Origin: a virus
Taxonomy: Duplodnaviria > Heunggongvirae > Uroviricota > Caudoviricetes
DNA: 8,823 bases
Direction: 5' to 3' (one strand)
IMG/VR virus record: IMGVR_UViG_2713896788_000033
Shown: positions 1,420-8,720 of the stretch, piece by piece
Position numbering within the stretch: the stretch's first letter is position 1
Layout: every line of letters begins with the position of its first letter
Position numbers and translations under genes: made by a program
Notes under the pieces: generated by a model
What the model saw: only the letters and a program-made list of their open reading frames with translations
Told to the model about the DNA's origin: nothing
Databases searched by the model: none

Positions 1420-4335
1420 ATGGCAGTAAAGATTTCAGGTGTACTGAAAGACGGCACAGGAAAACCGGTAGAGAACTGCACCATTCAACTGAAAGCCAGA
1501 CGTAACAGCGCCACGGTGGTGGTGAACACGGTGGCCTCTGAAAATCCGGATGAAGCCGGTCGTTACAGCATGGACGTTGAGTACGGTCAGTACAGCGTNA
1601 TTCTGTTGGTGGAAGGNTTCCCGCCGTCACATGCCGGGACCATCACCGTGTATGAAGATTCTCAACCCGGTACGCTGAATGATTTTCTTGGTGCCATGAC
1701 TGAGGATGATGTCCGTCCGGAGGCACTGCGCCGTTTTGAGCTGATGGTGGAAGAGGTGGCGCGTAACGCGTCCGCGGTGGCACAGAACACGGCAGCCGCG
1801 AAGAAGTCAGCCAGCGATGCCAGCACATCAGCCCGTGAGGCGGCAACCCATGCGACTGATGCTGCGGACTCAGCACGCGCAGCCAGCACGTCAGCCGGAC
1901 AGGCCGCGTCGTCGGCTCAGTCAGCGTCTTCCAGCGCAGGAACGGCATCAACAAAGGCTACTGAAGCATCAAAAAGTGCTGCCGCTGCAGAGTCCTCAAA
2001 AAGCGCGGCGGCTACCAGTGCCGGTGCGGCGAAAACGTCAGAAACGAATGCGGCAGTGTCACAACAATCAGCCGCCACTTCTGCATCCACCGCGACCACG
2101 AAAGCGTCAGAAGCTGCCTCCTCAGCCAGGGATGCGTCGGCTTCAAAAGAGGCGGCAAAATCATCAGAAACGAGCGCAGCCTCGAGCGCCAGTAGTGCAG
2201 CCTCCTCGGCAACGGCGGCAGGCAATTCCGCGAAGGCGGCCAAAACGTCTGAGACAAACGCTAAGTCCTCTGAAACGGCAGCAGAACAGAGTGCCTCCGC
2301 AGCAGCAGGCTCAAAAACAGCGGCTGCATTATCTGCCAGTGCCGCGTCAACAAGTGCCGGGCAGGCCTCAGCCAGTGCCACCGCCGCCGGAAAATCGGCA
2401 GAAAGTGCCGCATCGTCTGCTTCAACAGCCACAACGAAGGCTGGCGAAGCCACTGAACAGGCCAGCGCAGCAGCGAGTTCTGCTTCCGCAGCGAAGACAT
2501 CCGAAACGAACGCGAAAGCGTCGGAAACCAGCGCAGAATCCTCAAAAACGGCTGCCGCATCGTCAGCCAGTTCGGCGGCGTCATCGGCATCATCTGCGTC
2601 TGCTTCAAAAGATGAGGCGACCAGACAAGCGTCAGCAGCGAAGAGCAGCGCCACGACGGCATCCACGAAGGCGACAGAGGCAGCTGGTAGTGCGACGGCA
2701 GCAGCTCAGAGCAAAAGTACGGCGGAATCTGCAGCAACGCGCGCTGAGACAGCGGCAAAACGGGCAGAGGATATTGCATCCGCCGTGGCGCTTGAGGATG
2801 CGAGCACGACGAAAAAGGGGATAGTACAGCTCAGCAGTGCGACTAACAGCACTTCCGAGTCACTGGCGGCAACGCCAAAAGCCGTTAAGGCCGCGTATGA
2901 GCTGGCTAACGGGAAATACACCGCACAGGATGCAACGACAGCACAGAAAGGGATAGTTCAGCTTAGCAACGCGACCAACAGCACATCTGAAATGCTGGCG
3001 GCAACGCCAAAGTCGGTAAAGGCAGCCTATGACCTTGCTAACGGGAAATATACTGCTCAGGACGCTACGACAGCACAAAAAGGAATTGTCCAGCTCAGTA
3101 GTGCAACCAACAGCGCATCTGAAACGCTTGCCGCGACACCGAAAGCAGTGAAAGCAGCTAATGATAATGCGAATGGTCGGGTACCTTCTGCCCGTAAGGT
3201 GAATGGTAAGGCGCTTTCATCGGATATAACACTGACGCCGAAAGATATTGGTACGCTTAACTCAACAACAATGTCATTCAGCGGTGGTGCTGGTTGGTTC
3301 AAATTAGCAACGGTAACCATGCCACAGGCGAGTTCTGTTGTTTCAATTACGTTGATTGGTGGCGCGGGATTTAACGTGGGGTCACCTCAACAGGCAGGTA
3401 TATCTGAACTTGTTTTGCGTGCAGGTAATGGTAATCCGAAGGGGATTACTGGTGCTTTATGGCAGCGCACATCGACAGGGTTTACAAATTTTGCCTGGGT
3501 CAATACATCTGGTGATACTTACGATATTTACGTTGCAATCGGAAATTATGCGACTGGTGTAAATATTCAATGGGATTATACCAGTAATGCCAGCGTGACG
3601 ATTCATACGTCACCAGCATATTCTGCTAATAAGCCGGAAGGGTTAACGGACGGTACAGTTTATTCACTCTATACGCCATCAGAGCAGTTTTATCCGCCTG
3701 GCGCACCAATCCCGTGGCCATCAGATACCGTTCCGTCTGGCTATGCCCTGATGCAGGGGCAGACTTTTGACAAATCTGCATACCCGAAACTTGCAGCCGC
3801 TTATCCGTCAGGCGTGATCCCTGATATGCGTGGCTGGACGATTAAGGGCAAACCTGCCAGTGGTCGGGCCGTATTGTCTCAGGAACAGGACGGCATTAAA
3901 TCGCACACCCACAGCGCCAGCGCATCCAGTACGGATTTGGGGACGAAAACCACATCGTCGTTTGATTACGGCACTAAATCCACGAATAACACCGGGGCGC
4001 ACACGCACAGTGTGAGCGGTACAGCCGCAAGTGCCGGAAACCATACTCATAGTGTCACAGGCGCATCAGCAGTCAGCCAGTGGTCACAAAATGGGTCAGT
4101 ACATAAGGTAGTGTCTGCGGCCAGTGTGAATACAAGTGCTGCAGGAGCGCACACTCATAGTGTCAGCGGCACAGCTGCATCTGCAGGTGCTCACGCACAT
4201 ACTGTCGGTATTGGTGCTCATACGCACTCTGTTGCGATTGGCTCACATGGACACACCATCACCGTTAACGCTGCGGGTAACGCGGAAAACACTGTCAAAA
4301 ACATCGCATTTAACTACATTGTGAGGCTTGCATAA
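1420..4335 (+). CDS. stf: Side tail fibre protein (lambda Stf-like; distal part related to T4 gp37-type fibres)
   Basis: The track ORF starts at GTG 1414, but ATG 1420 preceded by GGGGTG is the likelier start. Conserved N-terminal domain [16 protein letters not shown]... Long Ala/Ser/Thr-rich low-complexity shaft. Three tandem 44-aa repeats [44 protein letters not shown]-terminal His-rich HxH repeats and terminal ...[22 protein letters not shown]. Contains ambiguous bases at 1599 and 1617. Stop TAA 4333-4335 overlaps the tfa start. Confidence 0.9.
2815..3210 (+). repeat. Three in-frame tandem repeats of 132 bp (44 aa) inside stf (phage tail fibre repeat)
   Basis: Repeat units begin at 2815, 2947 and 3079, a period of exactly 132 bp. 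Peptide units are [88 protein letters not shown] and [28 protein letters not shown]..., the third diverging after about 3160. Confidence 0.9.
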
Positions 4336-4916
4336 TGGCATTCAGAATGAGTGAACAACCACGGACCATAAAAATTTATAATCTGCTGACCGGAACTAAT
4401 GAATTTATTGGTGAAGGTGACGCATATATTCCGCCTCATACAGGTCTGCCAGCAAACAGTACCTATATTGCACCGCCAGATATTCCGGCTGGCTTCGTGG
4501 CTGTTTTCAACAGTGATGAGTCATCGTGGCATCTCGTTGAAGATCATCGGGGTAAAACGGTTTATGACGTGGCTTCCGGCGACGCGTTATTTATTTCTGA
4601 ACTCGGCTCATTACCGGAAAATGTTACCTGGTTATCGCCGGAAGGGGAGTTTCAGAAGTGGAACGGCACAGCCTGGGTGAAAGATGCAGAAGCAGAAAAA
4701 CTGTTCCGGATCCGGGAGGCGGAAGAAACAAAAAACAGCCTGATGCAGGTAGCCAGTGAGCATATTGCGCCACTTCAGGATGCTGTAGATCTGGAAATCG
4801 CAACGGAGGAAGAAGCCTCATTGCTGGAAGCCTGGAAAAAGTATCGGGTGTTGCTGAACCGTGTTGATACATCAACTGCACCTGATATTGAGTGGCCTGT
4901 AATACCTGAAGTTTAA
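4335..4916 (+). CDS. tfa: Tail fibre assembly protein (Tfa; chaperone for the Stf tip, T4 gp38-related C-terminal domain)
   Basis: 193-aa ORF whose ATG (4335-4337) overlaps the stf stop as TAATG, the classic stf-tfa coupling. Its C-terminal segment ...[37 protein letters not shown] is the conserved Tfa C-terminal domain and recurs in the fragment at 8577-8696. Confidence 0.85.
4754..4874 (+). repeat. Left copy of an approximately 120-bp direct repeat (tfa 3' end) bracketing the cargo
   Basis: Hand alignment of 4754-4874 against 8577-8696 gives about 13 mismatches in 120 bp with no indels (about 89% identity). Confidence 0.8.
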
Positions 4917-5035: not shown

Positions 5036-5926
5036 TTAGTTTTTACTATTTATCTTTGTTTGTGGTTCTCCTTCAGCAAGCTCAGCGCCAGTGACAGGAT
5101 TGATGTCTTCATGGGATTTCAACCTTGTTGCCATAGCTTTTATCATAGCTTCTTGCTTGGTCGAAAGATTTATCGAGGCCTTCCCATCCCCACCGTCAAC
5201 CGCTGAAACTGGATCGGAAACATAGTCAAAGTTTTCATCACTGTTCCAACTACCTCTGACGTCTTCACCTTCTGACATGTTGTAATATACGTTTTTGTAT
5301 TTCTCAAGTGGTGGTAATTTTCCTGGTGGAAAGGTGTTACGAATTGAATGTAATGCTTTTTCAAATGAAAGCATGTGTGCTGCTTCCCGGGTCATTAAAA
5401 ATGCCAGAGTGTCTTTTACTCCAGGATCATCAGTAACATTAATGAGACGTTCGTAAATGATCTTTGCCCGAGCTTCAGCTGCAATATTTGAACGAAGATC
5501 GGCCGTGACTTCGCCAATAGTATCAACATAAGCTGCAGTCCAGGGTACTCCAGCTGAATTAGTTAATGCTGGGCCTCCTCCGTAGAGGAGAGAAGTTATA
5601 TGGCTATCATTGCCATTTTGAGTTAAGGAACGGTAAAGCTCAGCTTCATTCTCAGTTCCTTCAGCAAGTGCTCCTTTTGCACCTTTGTTGAGCATACCAA
5701 CAAGAGAACCAATAATTTCGAGATGACTTAGTTCTTCTGTTGCTATGTCCATCAGCATATCCCTTCGGCCTGCATCTTCATCACTTAAGCCTTGAGTGAA
5801 GTATCGGCATGCTGCTGCAAGCTCACCCTGTGGCCCACCGAATTGTTCTAAGAGTAGATTAGCCAAGCCTGGGTTTGGCTCACTTACACGTACTGTATAT
5901 TGAAGTTTTTTCACGTGTCTAAACAT
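5036..5926 (-). CDS. katN: Manganese (non-haem) catalase, KatN-like
   Basis: 296-aa ORF with a strong SD (GAGGAGG, reverse complement of 5930-5936) 4 nt before the ATG. N-terminus MFRHVKKLQYTVRVSEPNPGLANLLLEQFGGPQGELAAACRYF and two ExxH motifs (TEELSHLE, TREAAHML) match the dimanganese-site signature of the Mn-catalase family. It is the last gene of a yciG-yciF-yciE-katN arrangement like the one known in Salmonella. Confidence 0.8.
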   Translation of the reverse strand: MFRHVKKLQYTVRVSEPNPGLANLLLEQFGGPQGELAAACRYFTQGLSDEDAGRRDMLMDIATEELSHLEIIGSLVGMLNKGAKGALAEGTENEAELYRSLTQNGNDSHITSLLYGGGPALTNSAGVPWTAAYVDTIGEVTADLRSNIAAEARAKIIYERLINVTDDPGVKDTLAFLMTREAAHMLSFEKALHSIRNTFPPGKLPPLEKYKNVYYNMSEGEDVRGSWNSDENFDYVSDPVSAVDGGDGKASINLSTKQEAMIKAMATRLKSHEDINPVTGAELAEGEPQTKINSKN

Positions 5927-5944
5927 AATGCCTCCTCAAAAGAA

Positions 5945-6451
5945 TTATTTTTTGGCTTCAACTCCATCAATTTCAGATCTGACCATGAATTGCTCAGTGG
6001 TGTCAGGAATATGGTTAAGAAGCCATTCAGCCATTTGTTTTTCTTCATTAAGAATTGCTTCAATAATGGGTACTGAAGCTGTATCACCCGCATTTTTGGC
6101 TGCTGCGAGAAGAGATGTGTAACACGCAATTTCAAATTGTTCGAACACATAGCCACTGATCGAACCTTTGACAATTTCATCAGATGGAAAAATTCCACCA
6201 ATGGATTGTCCAAACGCGGCCATTTTACTCATAGAGTCTTTAATGACAGAGCGCGAAATATTATTACGATCAAGTATGCTTTCAAGCTGTGAAAGCTGGT
6301 TCTTTGTTTCGCTAATGTGCTGCTCAATTCTGGAACGTAACTCAGGATAGTTTTCTATCCGGCTGGCCATAGACTCAAGCATTTTTTCAGCTTGTTTTTC
6401 CATCGCATGTGCATCACGAAGCCAGTCATGGTAATGTTCAATTCTATTCAT
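5945..6451 (-). CDS. yciE: DUF892 ferritin-like stress protein, YciE-like
   Basis: 168-aa ORF with SD AGGA upstream (reverse complement of about 6456-6462). N-terminus MNRIEHYHDWLRDAHAMEKQAEKML carries the DUF892 motif (D-x-[YH]-x-[AM]-E-K-Q). Gene order matches yciGFE. Confidence 0.8.
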   Translation of the reverse strand: MNRIEHYHDWLRDAHAMEKQAEKMLESMASRIENYPELRSRIEQHISETKNQLSQLESILDRNNISRSVIKDSMSKMAAFGQSIGGIFPSDEIVKGSISGYVFEQFEIACYTSLLAAAKNAGDTASVPIIEAILNEEKQMAEWLLNHIPDTTEQFMVRSEIDGVEAKK

Positions 6452-6487
6452 AATCTGTTTATCCTAAAAGAAATTGAAGTCTATAGT

Positions 6488-6988
6488 TCAGGAGTTATCC
6501 TGAGCTTTTTTATTAACGTTATTAAATGCCAGGTCTGTTAATTTGACATCAGTAGCTTTTTCCTCTTCCAGTGTTTCTTTCAGGAGTTTAGCCGCTTTTT
6601 TATATCCTAATTGCTCAGCGAGTGTTACCAAAGTGCCATAACTGGCAATTTCATAGTGCTCTACTTTTTGTGCTGCAGCAATCAATGCAGCATCACGTAC
6701 TTCATTTTTATCAGTGCTTTCAATTACCTCATTCGCCTCTTCGATAAGTCCTTCCATTGCGGCACACTTAATTCTTTTCAATTTAAGACCATCTTCAGAA
6801 TCAACAACCTGATCGATGCGTTCAATTTGACCATGTGTCTCATCAAGATGTGACTGAAAAGCAGCGGTTAATTTATCACTATATGCAGAGCGACTAAGTT
6901 TAGACAGTGCCTTTGTTAGTTGTTTCTCAGCGCTGTATGTATCCGATAATAAGTGGATGAAGATATCTTCAACAGATTTAATTTGCAT
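6488..6988 (-). CDS. yciF: DUF892 ferritin-like stress protein, YciF-like
   Basis: The track ORF starts at GTG 6994 (MIMQIK...), but ATG 6988 preceded by GGAG with a 5-nt spacer is the likelier start (MQIKSVEDIFIHLLSDTYSAEKQLTKAL...). It carries the DUF892 motif LSDTYSAEKQ and is a paralogue of the adjacent YciE-like gene. Confidence 0.8.
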   Translation of the reverse strand: MQIKSVEDIFIHLLSDTYSAEKQLTKALSKLSRSAYSDKLTAAFQSHLDETHGQIERIDQVVDSEDGLKLKRIKCAAMEGLIEEANEVIESTDKNEVRDAALIAAAQKVEHYEIASYGTLVTLAEQLGYKKAAKLLKETLEEEKATDVKLTDLAFNNVNKKAQDNS

Positions 6989-7006
6989 AATCACTCCAGA
7001 GTTTTC

Positions 7007-7030
7007 ACTGCGAGCCCGTAGGCTCGCAGT
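7007..7030 (-). promoter_or_regulatory. Perfect 10-bp stem / 4-nt loop hairpin in the yciG-yciF intercistronic region
   Basis: ACTGCGAGCC (7007-7016), loop CGTA, GGCTCGCAGT (7021-7030). No U-run follows on the transcribed (minus) strand, so it looks like an intra-operon processing or stability element or a partial attenuator, not a full terminator. Confidence 0.5.
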
Positions 7031-7066
7031 TAGCTTCAGTTATTCACGAATGTAGGGGGTGATAAA

Positions 7067-7249
7067 TTAAGAGTCAGATTTACGGCCGCCACCATGGCTA
7101 TTCTGACCACCTTTTTTCCCTGCTTCTGATGCTCTTTGTGGATCGTTTTTAAAATTACCGCCACTATGTTGGCCGCCTTTACGACCAGCGTCAGAAGCTT
7201 TTTGTCGATCTTCAGCGAAATTACCTGCACCGCCACGATGTTCGGTCAT
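7067..7249 (-). CDS. yciG: KGG-repeat general stress protein, YciG-like
   Basis: 60-aa Gly/Lys-rich ORF MTEHRGGAGNFAEDRQKASDAGRKGGQHSGGNFKNDPQRASEAGKKGGQNSHGGGRKSDS with two KGG-type repeats (GRKGGQHSGGNF, GKKGGQNSHGG). SD GAGGAGAA (reverse complement of 7255-7262) precedes the ATG. First gene of the operon. Confidence 0.75.
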   Translation of the reverse strand: MTEHRGGAGNFAEDRQKASDAGRKGGQHSGGNFKNDPQRASEAGKKGGQNSHGGGRKSDS

Positions 7250-7272
7250 ATCATTTCTCCTCTGATTTTCAA

Positions 7273-7299
7273 ATTGTAAATAACATGTGCCTTGTCAGC
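7273..7299 (-). promoter_or_regulatory. Candidate promoter for the yciG-like operon (minus strand)
   Basis: On the minus strand: -35-like CTGACA (reverse complement of 7294-7299), about 15 bp spacer, -10-like TACAAT (reverse complement of 7273-7278), about 25 nt upstream of the yciG ATG. The spacer is short, so a stationary-phase sigma-factor-type promoter with a degenerate -35 is plausible. Prediction by eye only. Confidence 0.3.
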
Positions 7300-7746
7300 A
7301 CCCAATTAACTCTAGTAACAAATAAGAAAGTGTCAAATAAGAGATTGGTATGCGCATCTTAATGTGAGAAATAGCAATTGTAAAAATGTGTACTCAGTGA
7401 GTATAATCTGTTGATATCTTGGTGATTAACGGAAAGTTTAGGTTGTAACTCAAAAGATTAATAAATCTAAATTTACATTTCTATATCTTTTGATGTGTAT
7501 GGCGTTGTTTTTCTCAATCAGAACATTCTAAAAAATAATTTAATTACACGGCGGTAGTTGTTAATGTTTTTACGACTCTTCCTAATGAAGTCTGTTTCTT
7601 GGATAAATAGAGAAATTTTATCTTAAGGACTAATTACAAAAACATCTATATAGCCACAGGAATCATTATTGTACTTAACTACAATATTTGAGAGTAAAAA
7701 TTAAACCGCAGACACGGCGTATGCAAGAACGTGCTGCGGTTGGATG

Positions 7747-8415
7747 CTATTTTTTCCCTGAAGCGGAAAACATTACTACAGTACCTTGAACCTTGGTTTT
7801 AACATTCTCGAAATGCTCTGAGAGTATATGTGTTAAGCCTTCTTCGGAATCTTTTGTGTTTGAAAAGATGCCTTTCTGATTGTAAATGCGCATCAGTTTT
7901 TGACCGAAGCTATTGTGCACAACTCCATCGCCAAGAATTGTGGCTCCGTATAGAGTTCCATCGTCAGTTAAGGCCTGCGCCGCATTGCGTATTACACAGC
8001 TTTTTGTAGATATATTTCCAGGCAGGCAGTGAAGAAGGTAAAACATGGAAATGGAATCAAATTGACCATGTAACGCCGCGGGATAAGGTTCAAAAACATC
8101 ATGGCTAATTTTATGTTTAATTTTTGATTCCCCAGCCCTTGTAGATGCCGCGTTCAGGCTAGCTTCGTTCAAATCCATTAAAGATATCAGACTACTCTCA
8201 GGTACGTGAGTAAGGTAAAACCCAGTTCCAACACCAATATCCAGATGGTTGTTACCTAAATGTTCCAGAAAGTGTGGAAGAAGGTGTTCCTTTGTAGGAC
8301 ATCCCCATGCAAGACGATTTGATACTCCCAAAACCCACCAGTCATAAAGCTTTAGGGTAAGTGGTGTGTAAATTTTAGCCCCATCATCTGTGTTTTTTTT
8401 CATTAATTTCACCAT
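7747..8415 (-). CDS. Class I SAM-dependent methyltransferase (orphan; target unknown)
   Basis: 222-aa ORF; the likelier start is the internal ATG (reverse complement of 8401-8403), which has a GGTGA SD, giving MKKNTDDGAK... Rossmann motif I HLDIGVGTGFYL (hh-D-h-G-x-G-x-G), an acidic residue after beta-2 (SLMDLNE) and a DDGTLY motif typical of small-molecule/RNA class I methyltransferases. From memory, a methyltransferase gene (ybcY) lies between two tfa genes in E. coli K-12 prophage DLP12; this arrangement is similar, but the homology is unverified. Confidence 0.6.
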   Translation of the reverse strand: MVKLMKKNTDDGAKIYTPLTLKLYDWWVLGVSNRLAWGCPTKEHLLPHFLEHLGNNHLDIGVGTGFYLTHVPESSLISLMDLNEASLNAASTRAGESKIKHKISHDVFEPYPAALHGQFDSISMFYLLHCLPGNISTKSCVIRNAAQALTDDGTLYGATILGDGVVHNSFGQKLMRIYNQKGIFSNTKDSEEGLTHILSEHFENVKTKVQGTVVMFSASGKK

Positions 8416-8471
8416 GTTATAGTTTTATTTGTGAATTAAATCAATTATGGCGATGAATTACAAGGGGTTAA

Positions 8472-8720
8472 ATGCTGCCGCAGCATAGCGATATTGAAAT
8501 AGCCTGGTATGCTGCGATACAGCAGGAGCCGAATGGCTGGAAGACCGTCACCACACAGTTCTACATCCAGGAATTCAGTGAGTATATTGCGCCACTGCAG
8601 GATGCTGTAGATCTGGAAATCGCAACGGAGGAAGAAAGATCGTTGCTGGAGGCATGGAATAAATATCGGGTATTGTTGAATCGTGTTGATACATCAGTAG
8701 CTCGTAAGCGTACAGCCTGA
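8472..8720 (+). pseudogene. 3' remnant of a second tail fibre assembly (tfa) gene
   Basis: 82-aa ORF whose C-terminal half ...[38 protein letters not shown] matches the C-terminal domain of the tfa at 4335-4916 (nucleotide similarity 8577-8696 versus 4754-4874). The N-terminal 35 residues show no similarity to the full Tfa and there is no convincing SD, so this is probably a recombination remnant whose ATG is fortuitous. Confidence 0.6.
8577..8696 (+). repeat. Right copy of the approximately 120-bp direct repeat (tfa 3' end)
   Basis: See the left copy: same orientation, same reading frame, similarity ends at ...GTTGATACATCA. Confidence 0.8.

Follow-up and report, generated by a model that had tools for sequence, protein, structure and literature searches.

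The interval between positions 7250 and 7746 (497 bp) of the viral record IMGVR_UViG_2713896788_000033 was analyzed within the whole stretch of 8,823 nucleotides, referred to here as the window. It lies between the start codon of a yciG-like gene on the minus strand (ATG, 7249-7247) and the stop codon of a methyltransferase gene (7747), and is probably the cis-regulatory region of a prophage moron carrying the yciG-yciF-yciE-katN operon, rather than a long leader or an RNA gene. The window is from Escherichia coli O157:H7 prophage Sp8/CP-933X. For approximately 1.5 kb around the interval, many E. coli O157:H7 chromosomes match the window at 100% identity, the equivalent region being the lambda-like prophage Sp8 (genes ECs1649-ECs1657) in strain Sakai and CP-933X, O-island 52, in strain EDL933 (PMC5363993; PMC2907692). 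Window positions 7067-8415 are converted to EDL933 (CP008957.1) by adding 1,733,671 and to Sakai (NC_002695.2) by adding 1,648,233.

Read along the minus strand, the proposed control region would work as follows. A hairpin and U-tract (7746-7693) would end the methyltransferase transcript as well as incoming read-through and so isolate the yciG promoter. The adjoining stretch of approximately 360 bp of 71% A+T DNA (7692-7337) would act as a platform for H-NS polymerization, silencing the promoter in growing cells, and the promoter-like and palindromic sequences found there would be those that any such DNA holds. Next, a sigma-S-type promoter (TTGACA-16-C-TAGAGT-TAA, 7336-7309) would be active during stationary phase or stress, with a start near 7302, and a structured 53-nt 5' untranslated region (5'UTR) with a strong Shine-Dalgarno sequence would lead into yciG. 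The positions, composition, core-promoter conservation, moron architecture and terminator fold behind this account were computed, while RpoS dependence and derepression in hns mutants were taken from the literature.

The operon and its upstream DNA form a moron

The operon (5036-7249, minus strand; Z1924-Z1921 in EDL933, ECs1655-ECs1652 in Sakai) was recognized from its open reading frames (ORFs) and from the RefSeq annotation of identical DNA in strains PA20, Sakai and EDL933, and these four genes have been called an operon on CP-933X (PMC5363993). Together with approximately 450 bp of AT-rich upstream DNA the operon is a moron, inserted in reversed orientation, with the tail-fibre assembly gene tfa (4335-4916, plus strand) on one side and the terminal hairpin of the late region on the other. 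The cargo amounts to 2.8 kb with its own promoter, and its GC content is 0.29-0.46 versus 0.50-0.65 in the tail-fibre gene. A candidate terminator-like hairpin, AGCCCGC...GCGGGCT, was also seen in the alignment between tfa and katN.

Natural variation was assessed by comparing 17 natural copies, with strain 200088 (L002) as the divergent reference; a pattern search of viral contigs gave six loci. Strain 200088 and two further haplotypes (L087 and L092) do not carry the methyltransferase gene, yet the AT-rich DNA and the hairpin are still found beside the operon, and in strain 200088 the sequence beyond the hairpin resumes as HK97-like. As the AT-rich DNA and hairpin are kept without the methyltransferase, and the hairpin follows tfa in phage HK97, the cassette has been inserted between tfa and the hairpin.

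The operon itself was 97-100% identical to that of strain 200088 (one 100-nt bin at 94%). Upstream of it, identity was 100% at 7201-7300, 91% at 7301-7400, 85% at 7401-7500 and approximately 74%, with insertions and deletions, at 7501-7700, so that the farther the DNA lies from the promoter, the lower the identity (91% down to 74%). By this comparison the distal upstream DNA showed no sign of constraint. When 7501-7746 was compared with L002, L087, L092, L100 and L101, two allelic forms of approximately 74% identity were seen. Alleles so different on operons that are 97-100% identical imply recombination inside the AT-rich region and not gradual divergence.

The predicted yciG promoter and 5'UTR

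The core yciG promoter was placed on the minus strand at 7309-7336, with a -35 element TTGACA (7336-7331), a 16-nt spacer, a -10 element TAGAGT (7314-7309), a C at -13 (7315) and a following TAA. To examine its conservation, the 311 nt upstream of the yciG start were aligned for 12 sequences, comprising the window and 11 other loci containing yciF: Escherichia ruysiae, the E. coli chromosomal locus, two Enterobacter, two Salmonella subspecies, Leclercia, Pseudocitrobacter, Citrobacter, Klebsiella oxytoca and a second E. coli prophage copy. The sole conserved block in this alignment was ATTTGAC, 16-17 nt, CTAnnnTTAAT, which corresponds to window positions 7336-7305. Minus-strand positions 7315-7305 read CTAGAGTTAAT, a sigma-S-type extended -10 of the form CTAnnnTTAA with both the C at -13 and the TAA-type discriminator that mark sigma-S -10 elements (consensus KCTAYRCTTAA, for which a -35 is optional). 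The promoter scanner scored the site 10/12, one of its two top hits. Among the 17 natural copies it was unchanged except for TAGAGT to TAAAGT in one haplotype. Judged from these features, the yciG promoter at 7336-7309 is predicted to be of the sigma-S type.

The conserved -10 places the exact start, as a prediction, near G7302, which in turn gives a predicted 5'UTR of 53 nt (7250-7302, minus strand). A K-12 Cappable-seq supplement listed no start close to the one predicted for K-12 yciG. The preliminary description of this DNA had treated the interval as a leader of roughly 500 bp, which is a misnomer in that only about 53 nt (7302-7250) are predicted to be transcribed into yciG, the remainder being upstream DNA. 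It had also placed the yciG promoter at 7273-7299, where TACAAT (7278-7273) is preceded by CTGACA at a 14-nt spacer or by GCTGAC (0/6) at 15 nt. The scanner gave no hit at that position, which falls inside the predicted 5'UTR, in a part of it without cross-species conservation, and the placement was not upheld.

Within the predicted 5'UTR, a 5' hairpin GTGCTGACAAGGCAC (7301-7287) was followed by the Shine-Dalgarno sequence GAGGAG (7262-7257), and a second helix paired CAUGUUAUU with AAUGAUAUG, the start codon included. The computed fold (7247-7303, minus strand) had a free energy of -14.0 kcal/mol (z = -3.83), a stability not reached in any of 200 shuffles. This segment was 100% identical across all haplotypes sampled. 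In other species the corresponding position of the yciG 5'UTR is taken by another hairpin, GATACG...CGTATC. Any role of the fold in the window is inferred from the modeled structure.

The boundary hairpin

The distal end of the interval (7693-7746) is occupied by a conserved lambdoid terminal hairpin with its stem at 7704-7741, which the terminator scan identified as an intrinsic terminator for the methyltransferase gene. On the minus strand, 5 nt past the methyltransferase stop codon, a GC-rich stem of 12-13 bp (7741-7704) is directly followed by UUUAAUUUUUA; the fold was computed at -20.5 kcal/mol (z = -3.2). With a GC-rich hairpin and an immediate U-tract, the element has the sequence features of an intrinsic terminator on this strand, and it is a predicted minus-strand terminator that would insulate the yciG control region. 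The stem has no adjoining U-tract on the plus strand, and the scan of 6900-8500 returned no terminator-like plus-strand site.

The hairpin element of 44-49 nt (7698-7746) had matches in 36 phage records and in 3667 of the 5426 complete E. coli genomes, while the whole interval was found in only about 382 genomes. The HK97 copy of the hairpin element is located 126 nt past tfa, before sib and att, and in the Rac prophage of K-12 it follows tfaR-pinR-ydfK-ynaM, just before the host gene uspF. These positions in HK97 and Rac make the hairpin a landmark that closes the lambdoid late region. The sole Rfam match in the interval was CssrB, lying over the phage hairpin (21.7 bits versus a gathering score of 76, E = 0.49), and it was dismissed.

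AT-rich upstream DNA and control by H-NS and RpoS

The GC content was 0.31 for the interval and 0.285 for 7301-7700, compared with 0.40-0.60 elsewhere in the window, and no open frame touching the interval exceeded 33 amino acids; the preliminary description of an AT-rich region without an ORF of 60 or more amino acids was thus correct. The central portion (7337-7692, approximately 71% A+T, neither strand assigned) had no ORF, protein-family or Rfam match and, from its composition and its retention in strains that do not carry the methyltransferase gene, is most readily seen as upstream regulatory or silencing DNA which accompanies the operon. As in xenogeneic DNA silenced by H-NS, A+T content lay well over the genome average across more than 100 bp.

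An imperfect palindrome of 44 bp was located at 7450-7493 (18/22 positions complementary), with perfect outer arms of 9 bp, TCAAAAGAT and ATCTTTTGA. No other palindrome in the window scored 17/22 or more, and a score of 18 was reached in 1 of 500 dinucleotide shuffles. In other haplotypes it fell to 13-17/22 and there were no compensating changes.

Control of the operon by H-NS and RpoS is already known. In an EDL933 hns deletion, katN (Z1921) mRNA rose more than 450-fold, with agreement by western blot, and katN was described as promoted by RpoS/OxyR (PMC5363993). In an EDL933 rpoS mutant, transcripts of Z1922, Z1923 and Z1924 were lower by 35-, 64- and 137-fold, respectively (PMC2907692). 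Z1924 was induced under several stress conditions (PMC4048457), and the Salmonella chromosomal yciG is a standard reporter of silencing by H-NS/StpA (PMC4223078). The suggestion, made earlier from the letters of this DNA, that the interval is an H-NS target fits both the derepression of katN and the silencing of Salmonella yciG and so agrees with what had been published. We infer that H-NS binds the DNA of the interval directly.

Plus-strand motifs and alternative explanations

The preliminary description had drawn attention to a plus-strand TTGTAA (7378-7383) and TATAAT (7402-7407) with an 18-nt spacer, overlapped by the palindrome TACTCA-G-TGAGTA (7391-7403), and all of these positions proved exact. 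Its proposal that they form an operator-controlled promoter for a plus-strand transcript or small RNA (sRNA) was not supported, given motifs at chance level, arms that are mutated in other haplotypes and no backing from conservation. The interval was shuffled 2000 times with its dinucleotide counts preserved. A perfect TATAAT, on one strand or the other, then occurred on average 1.05 times per shuffle (at least once in 64%), and a palindrome with 6-nt arms and a loop of 0-4 nt on average 1.15 times (62%). Of the shuffles, 15.5% contained a perfect -10 whose -35 matched at 4/6 or better, and 5.9% contained a palindrome touching a perfect TATAAT, a combination that was chosen post hoc. The promoter scanner found 7 promoter-like sites in 6900-8500 versus 5.3 +/- 2.5 expected, 5 of the 7 being inside the interval. 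The flagged motifs are not above chance for DNA as AT-rich as this, and the promoter-like site at 7378-7407 is most likely a chance or spurious one.

Of the other explanations, the one that survived best was that the TATAAT acts as a spurious or interfering divergent promoter which fires weakly, mainly when H-NS is absent, has neither operator nor product, and at most competes with the yciG promoter for RNA polymerase. The density of promoter-like sites given above favours this explanation, as such sites are expected by chance, and H-NS reportedly suppresses spurious promoters in AT-rich DNA (Singh et al. in 2014; Lamberte et al. in 2017). An antisense sigma-70 promoter in the yciG region of Salmonella may have been described by Beraud et al. 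in 2010. When the upstream regions of the Salmonella and E. coli chromosomal yciG genes were put through the same scan, however, no strong sigma-70-like site was found on either strand. We regard weak spurious firing as possible but rather doubtful.

A genuine sigma-70 promoter at 7378-7407 under the control of a palindrome-binding protein, producing a plus-strand RNA from approximately 7414 that would be an sRNA or an antisense RNA to the methyltransferase gene, is unlikely. The site does combine a perfect -10 with a -35 of 4/6 at an allowed spacer (10/12 overall), and since the plus-strand hairpin at 7704-7741 has no adjacent U-tract, a plus-strand transcript could enter the methyltransferase gene. 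However, hexamers equal to these or better were those found in 15.5% of the shuffles, there is no extended -10, and the spacer changes from 18 to 19 nt in divergent haplotypes. Three haplotypes carry changes in the arms of the palindrome (G to A in L089; T to C in L087, L092 and L002; TA to CG in L100 and L101) and a fourth has an altered centre base; the arm changes are uncompensated, so the symmetry expected of an operator is not maintained. The segment carrying the plus-strand site also evolves faster (85-91% identity) than the operon (97-100%). With respect to an sRNA gene, there was no plus-strand terminator in 6900-8500 and no Rfam match above threshold, and the supplements of an Hfq-CRAC study and of a study of small genes in Sakai had no entry at these coordinates, which is weak negative evidence.

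It was also considered whether yciG might have a second, distal promoter, with a minus-strand TATACT (7405-7400) as its -10, a start at approximately 7393 and a leader of 145 nt which would open with the hairpin formed by the palindrome. TATACT matches the sigma-S/sigma-70 -10 consensus at 5/6 positions and is invariant, and the RNA hairpin of the palindrome was computed at -5.3 kcal/mol (z = -2.2). Against this, TATACT has no C at -13, its best -35 is TTAATC (3/6), and the scanner gave no hit. Across species it is conserved neither in position nor in sequence, and the arms of the hairpin mutate without compensation, making a second promoter here very unlikely.

The idea that the AT-rich DNA is a decayed gene remnant, prompted by a RefSeq hypothetical protein of 112 amino acids (WP_032300779.1) over the homologue of 7480-7790 in strain 200088, is hardly credible and was rejected, as this protein has no Pfam or PHROG match and begins in non-homologous flanking DNA, its ORF was not called by another gene-calling pipeline on the same haplotype (L087 and L092), and in O157 no frame is open beyond the 33 amino acids already noted.

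Several observations do weigh against a silenced cis-regulatory region with incidental motifs, which nevertheless is the reading that we favour. The plus-strand TATAAT and TTGTAA were the same in all 17 natural copies, as a real divergent promoter might have it, but at 9-15% divergence and with few independent lineages unchanged hexamers carry little weight. The high-affinity H-NS nucleation motif TCGATAAATT was not enriched, with two 2-mismatch sites in the interval (7600 and 7608) and 14 in the window versus 9.3 +/- 3.0 expected; this motif is not obligatory for H-NS binding. The best match to the OxyR consensus was 11/20, under the shuffle mean of 12.4, so that no consensus site accounts for the published effect of OxyR. 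Lastly, RpoS levels rise in hns mutants, so the effect of hns on katN could be partly indirect.

A more speculative combination is that the invariant back-to-back -10 elements (TATAAT on the plus strand and TATACT on the minus strand), which lie approximately 100 bp ahead of where yciG starts, make up a true divergent promoter at which a factor binding CTCA-N-TGAG modulates occupancy and either counters or reinforces silencing by H-NS. We consider this a long shot. If true, the prophage copy would have swapped the distal GTMAA-N4-GTMA element of chromosomal yciG loci, described below, for another control input.

The practical gain from a cis-regulatory reading of the interval is modest. It provides coordinates for a likely sigma-S promoter, a 53-nt leader and a terminator boundary, defines the moron slot, and disposes of one candidate, an operator-controlled promoter at chance level, leaving current understanding unchallenged. 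KatN is reportedly a catalase secreted by the type VI secretion system which aids the survival of enterohaemorrhagic E. coli (EHEC) in macrophages, and control of the operon is thus somewhat relevant to pathogenesis.

Neighbouring genes and other observations in the window

The first gene of the operon is the yciG-like KGG-repeat gene (7067-7249, Z1924/ECs1655; Pfam KGG, E = 1.1e-16), and after it on the minus strand come genes resembling yciF (6488-6988) and yciE (5945-6451), both recognized as ORFs, with Pfam DUF892 among the genes called in the operon, and then the manganese catalase gene katN (5036-5926; Pfam Mn_catalase). The upstream neighbour on the same strand (7747-8415, equivalent to Z1925 and ECs1656) encodes a class I S-adenosylmethionine-dependent methyltransferase according to Pfam (Methyltransf_12/23/25) and RefSeq. 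It belongs to PHROG 2132 (E = 7.9e-157), a family without known function. The methyltransferase gene has a minus-strand promoter-like site of its own, TTAACC-16-CATAAT at 8471-8444 (scanner, 9/12; within 8416-8471). Beyond it are a plus-strand tfa fragment (8472-8720) and then ISEc8.

At the other end of the window, the plus strand carries Lom (282-881, from its ORF and RefSeq annotation) followed by the side tail fibre gene and tfa. A run of 50 N at 1300-1349 and single N at 1599 and 1617 all fall in the tail-fibre gene region, and Sakai, EDL933 and PA20 have 474 nt less DNA from Lom through to where the tail-fibre gene ends. Given the N run and the excess length, the window seems to come from a draft assembly in which the repeat-rich tail-fibre gene contains a scaffold gap. 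The Rfam family IS009 matched the 3' part of the tfa coding sequence (4678-4876) with 229 bits versus a gathering score of 117, and matched the tfa fragment (8495-8698) more weakly, below threshold, with 109 bits. This family, listed as an sRNA, therefore coincides with DNA coding for tail-fibre assembly.

Comparison with known systems

The closest known system is the chromosomal yciGFE(katN) locus of Salmonella enterica and E. coli K-12, which has the same gene order and the same proteins (YciF 80-82% identical). The chromosomal and prophage loci share the core promoter TTGAC-16/17-CTAnnnTTAAT and AT-rich upstream DNA, the GC content of the 300 nt upstream of chromosomal yciG being 0.32-0.38 in 11 of 18 loci (range 0.32-0.43), and RpoS dependence and hns derepression have been published for both. 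The chromosomal promoter was reportedly found by Beraud et al. in 2010 to be sigma-S-dependent, silenced by H-NS and modulated by YncC/McbR. The two differ in that the upstream DNA outside the core promoter cannot be aligned, in that the prophage copy has a perfect -35 and a longer and more AT-rich upstream tract, and in that it is bounded by a phage terminator, the chromosomal one by the trp terminator.

A direct repeat GTMAA-N4-GTMA (ACGTCAACTTACGTCA in E. coli) was present in 12 of 15 chromosomal yciG loci (L003, L004, L006-L010, L012, L013, L016, L043 and L046), at a fixed spacing of approximately 176-191 nt upstream of the -35, and was absent from both strands of the prophage interval 7250-7746. 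McbR/YncC binds the yciG promoter of K-12 (PMC7705038; PMC13343897), and the direct repeat may be the site for this protein. Were this the case, regulation of the prophage operon would have been rewired.

Prophage sRNAs of EHEC that depend on Hfq (AgvB, AsxR, HnrS and StxS) resemble the interval in being located in non-coding gaps of O157 lambdoid prophages near moron cargo (PMC4104026; PMC13502914). They differ in being 51-66 nt long with mapped 5' ends and intrinsic terminators, and their genes lie downstream from PR' or among the late genes of Sp5, Sp9, Sp10, Sp12 and Sp17. HnrS (EcOnc10-12) was rejected as a candidate because it is encoded in Sp9, Sp10 and Sp12 and not in Sp8 (PMC13502914).

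With respect to its architecture, the locus is comparable to the morons at the tail-fibre end of other lambdoid phages, such as lom and bor of lambda and ydfK-ynaM of Rac. There, too, the cargo occupies the slot that tfa and the terminal hairpin delimit, is served by a promoter and terminators of its own, and differs in composition from the phage genes around it. In contrast to those morons, the cargo here consists of a stress operon of four genes whose AT-rich control region is unusually long, and a second cargo gene, that for the methyltransferase, lies beyond the hairpin.

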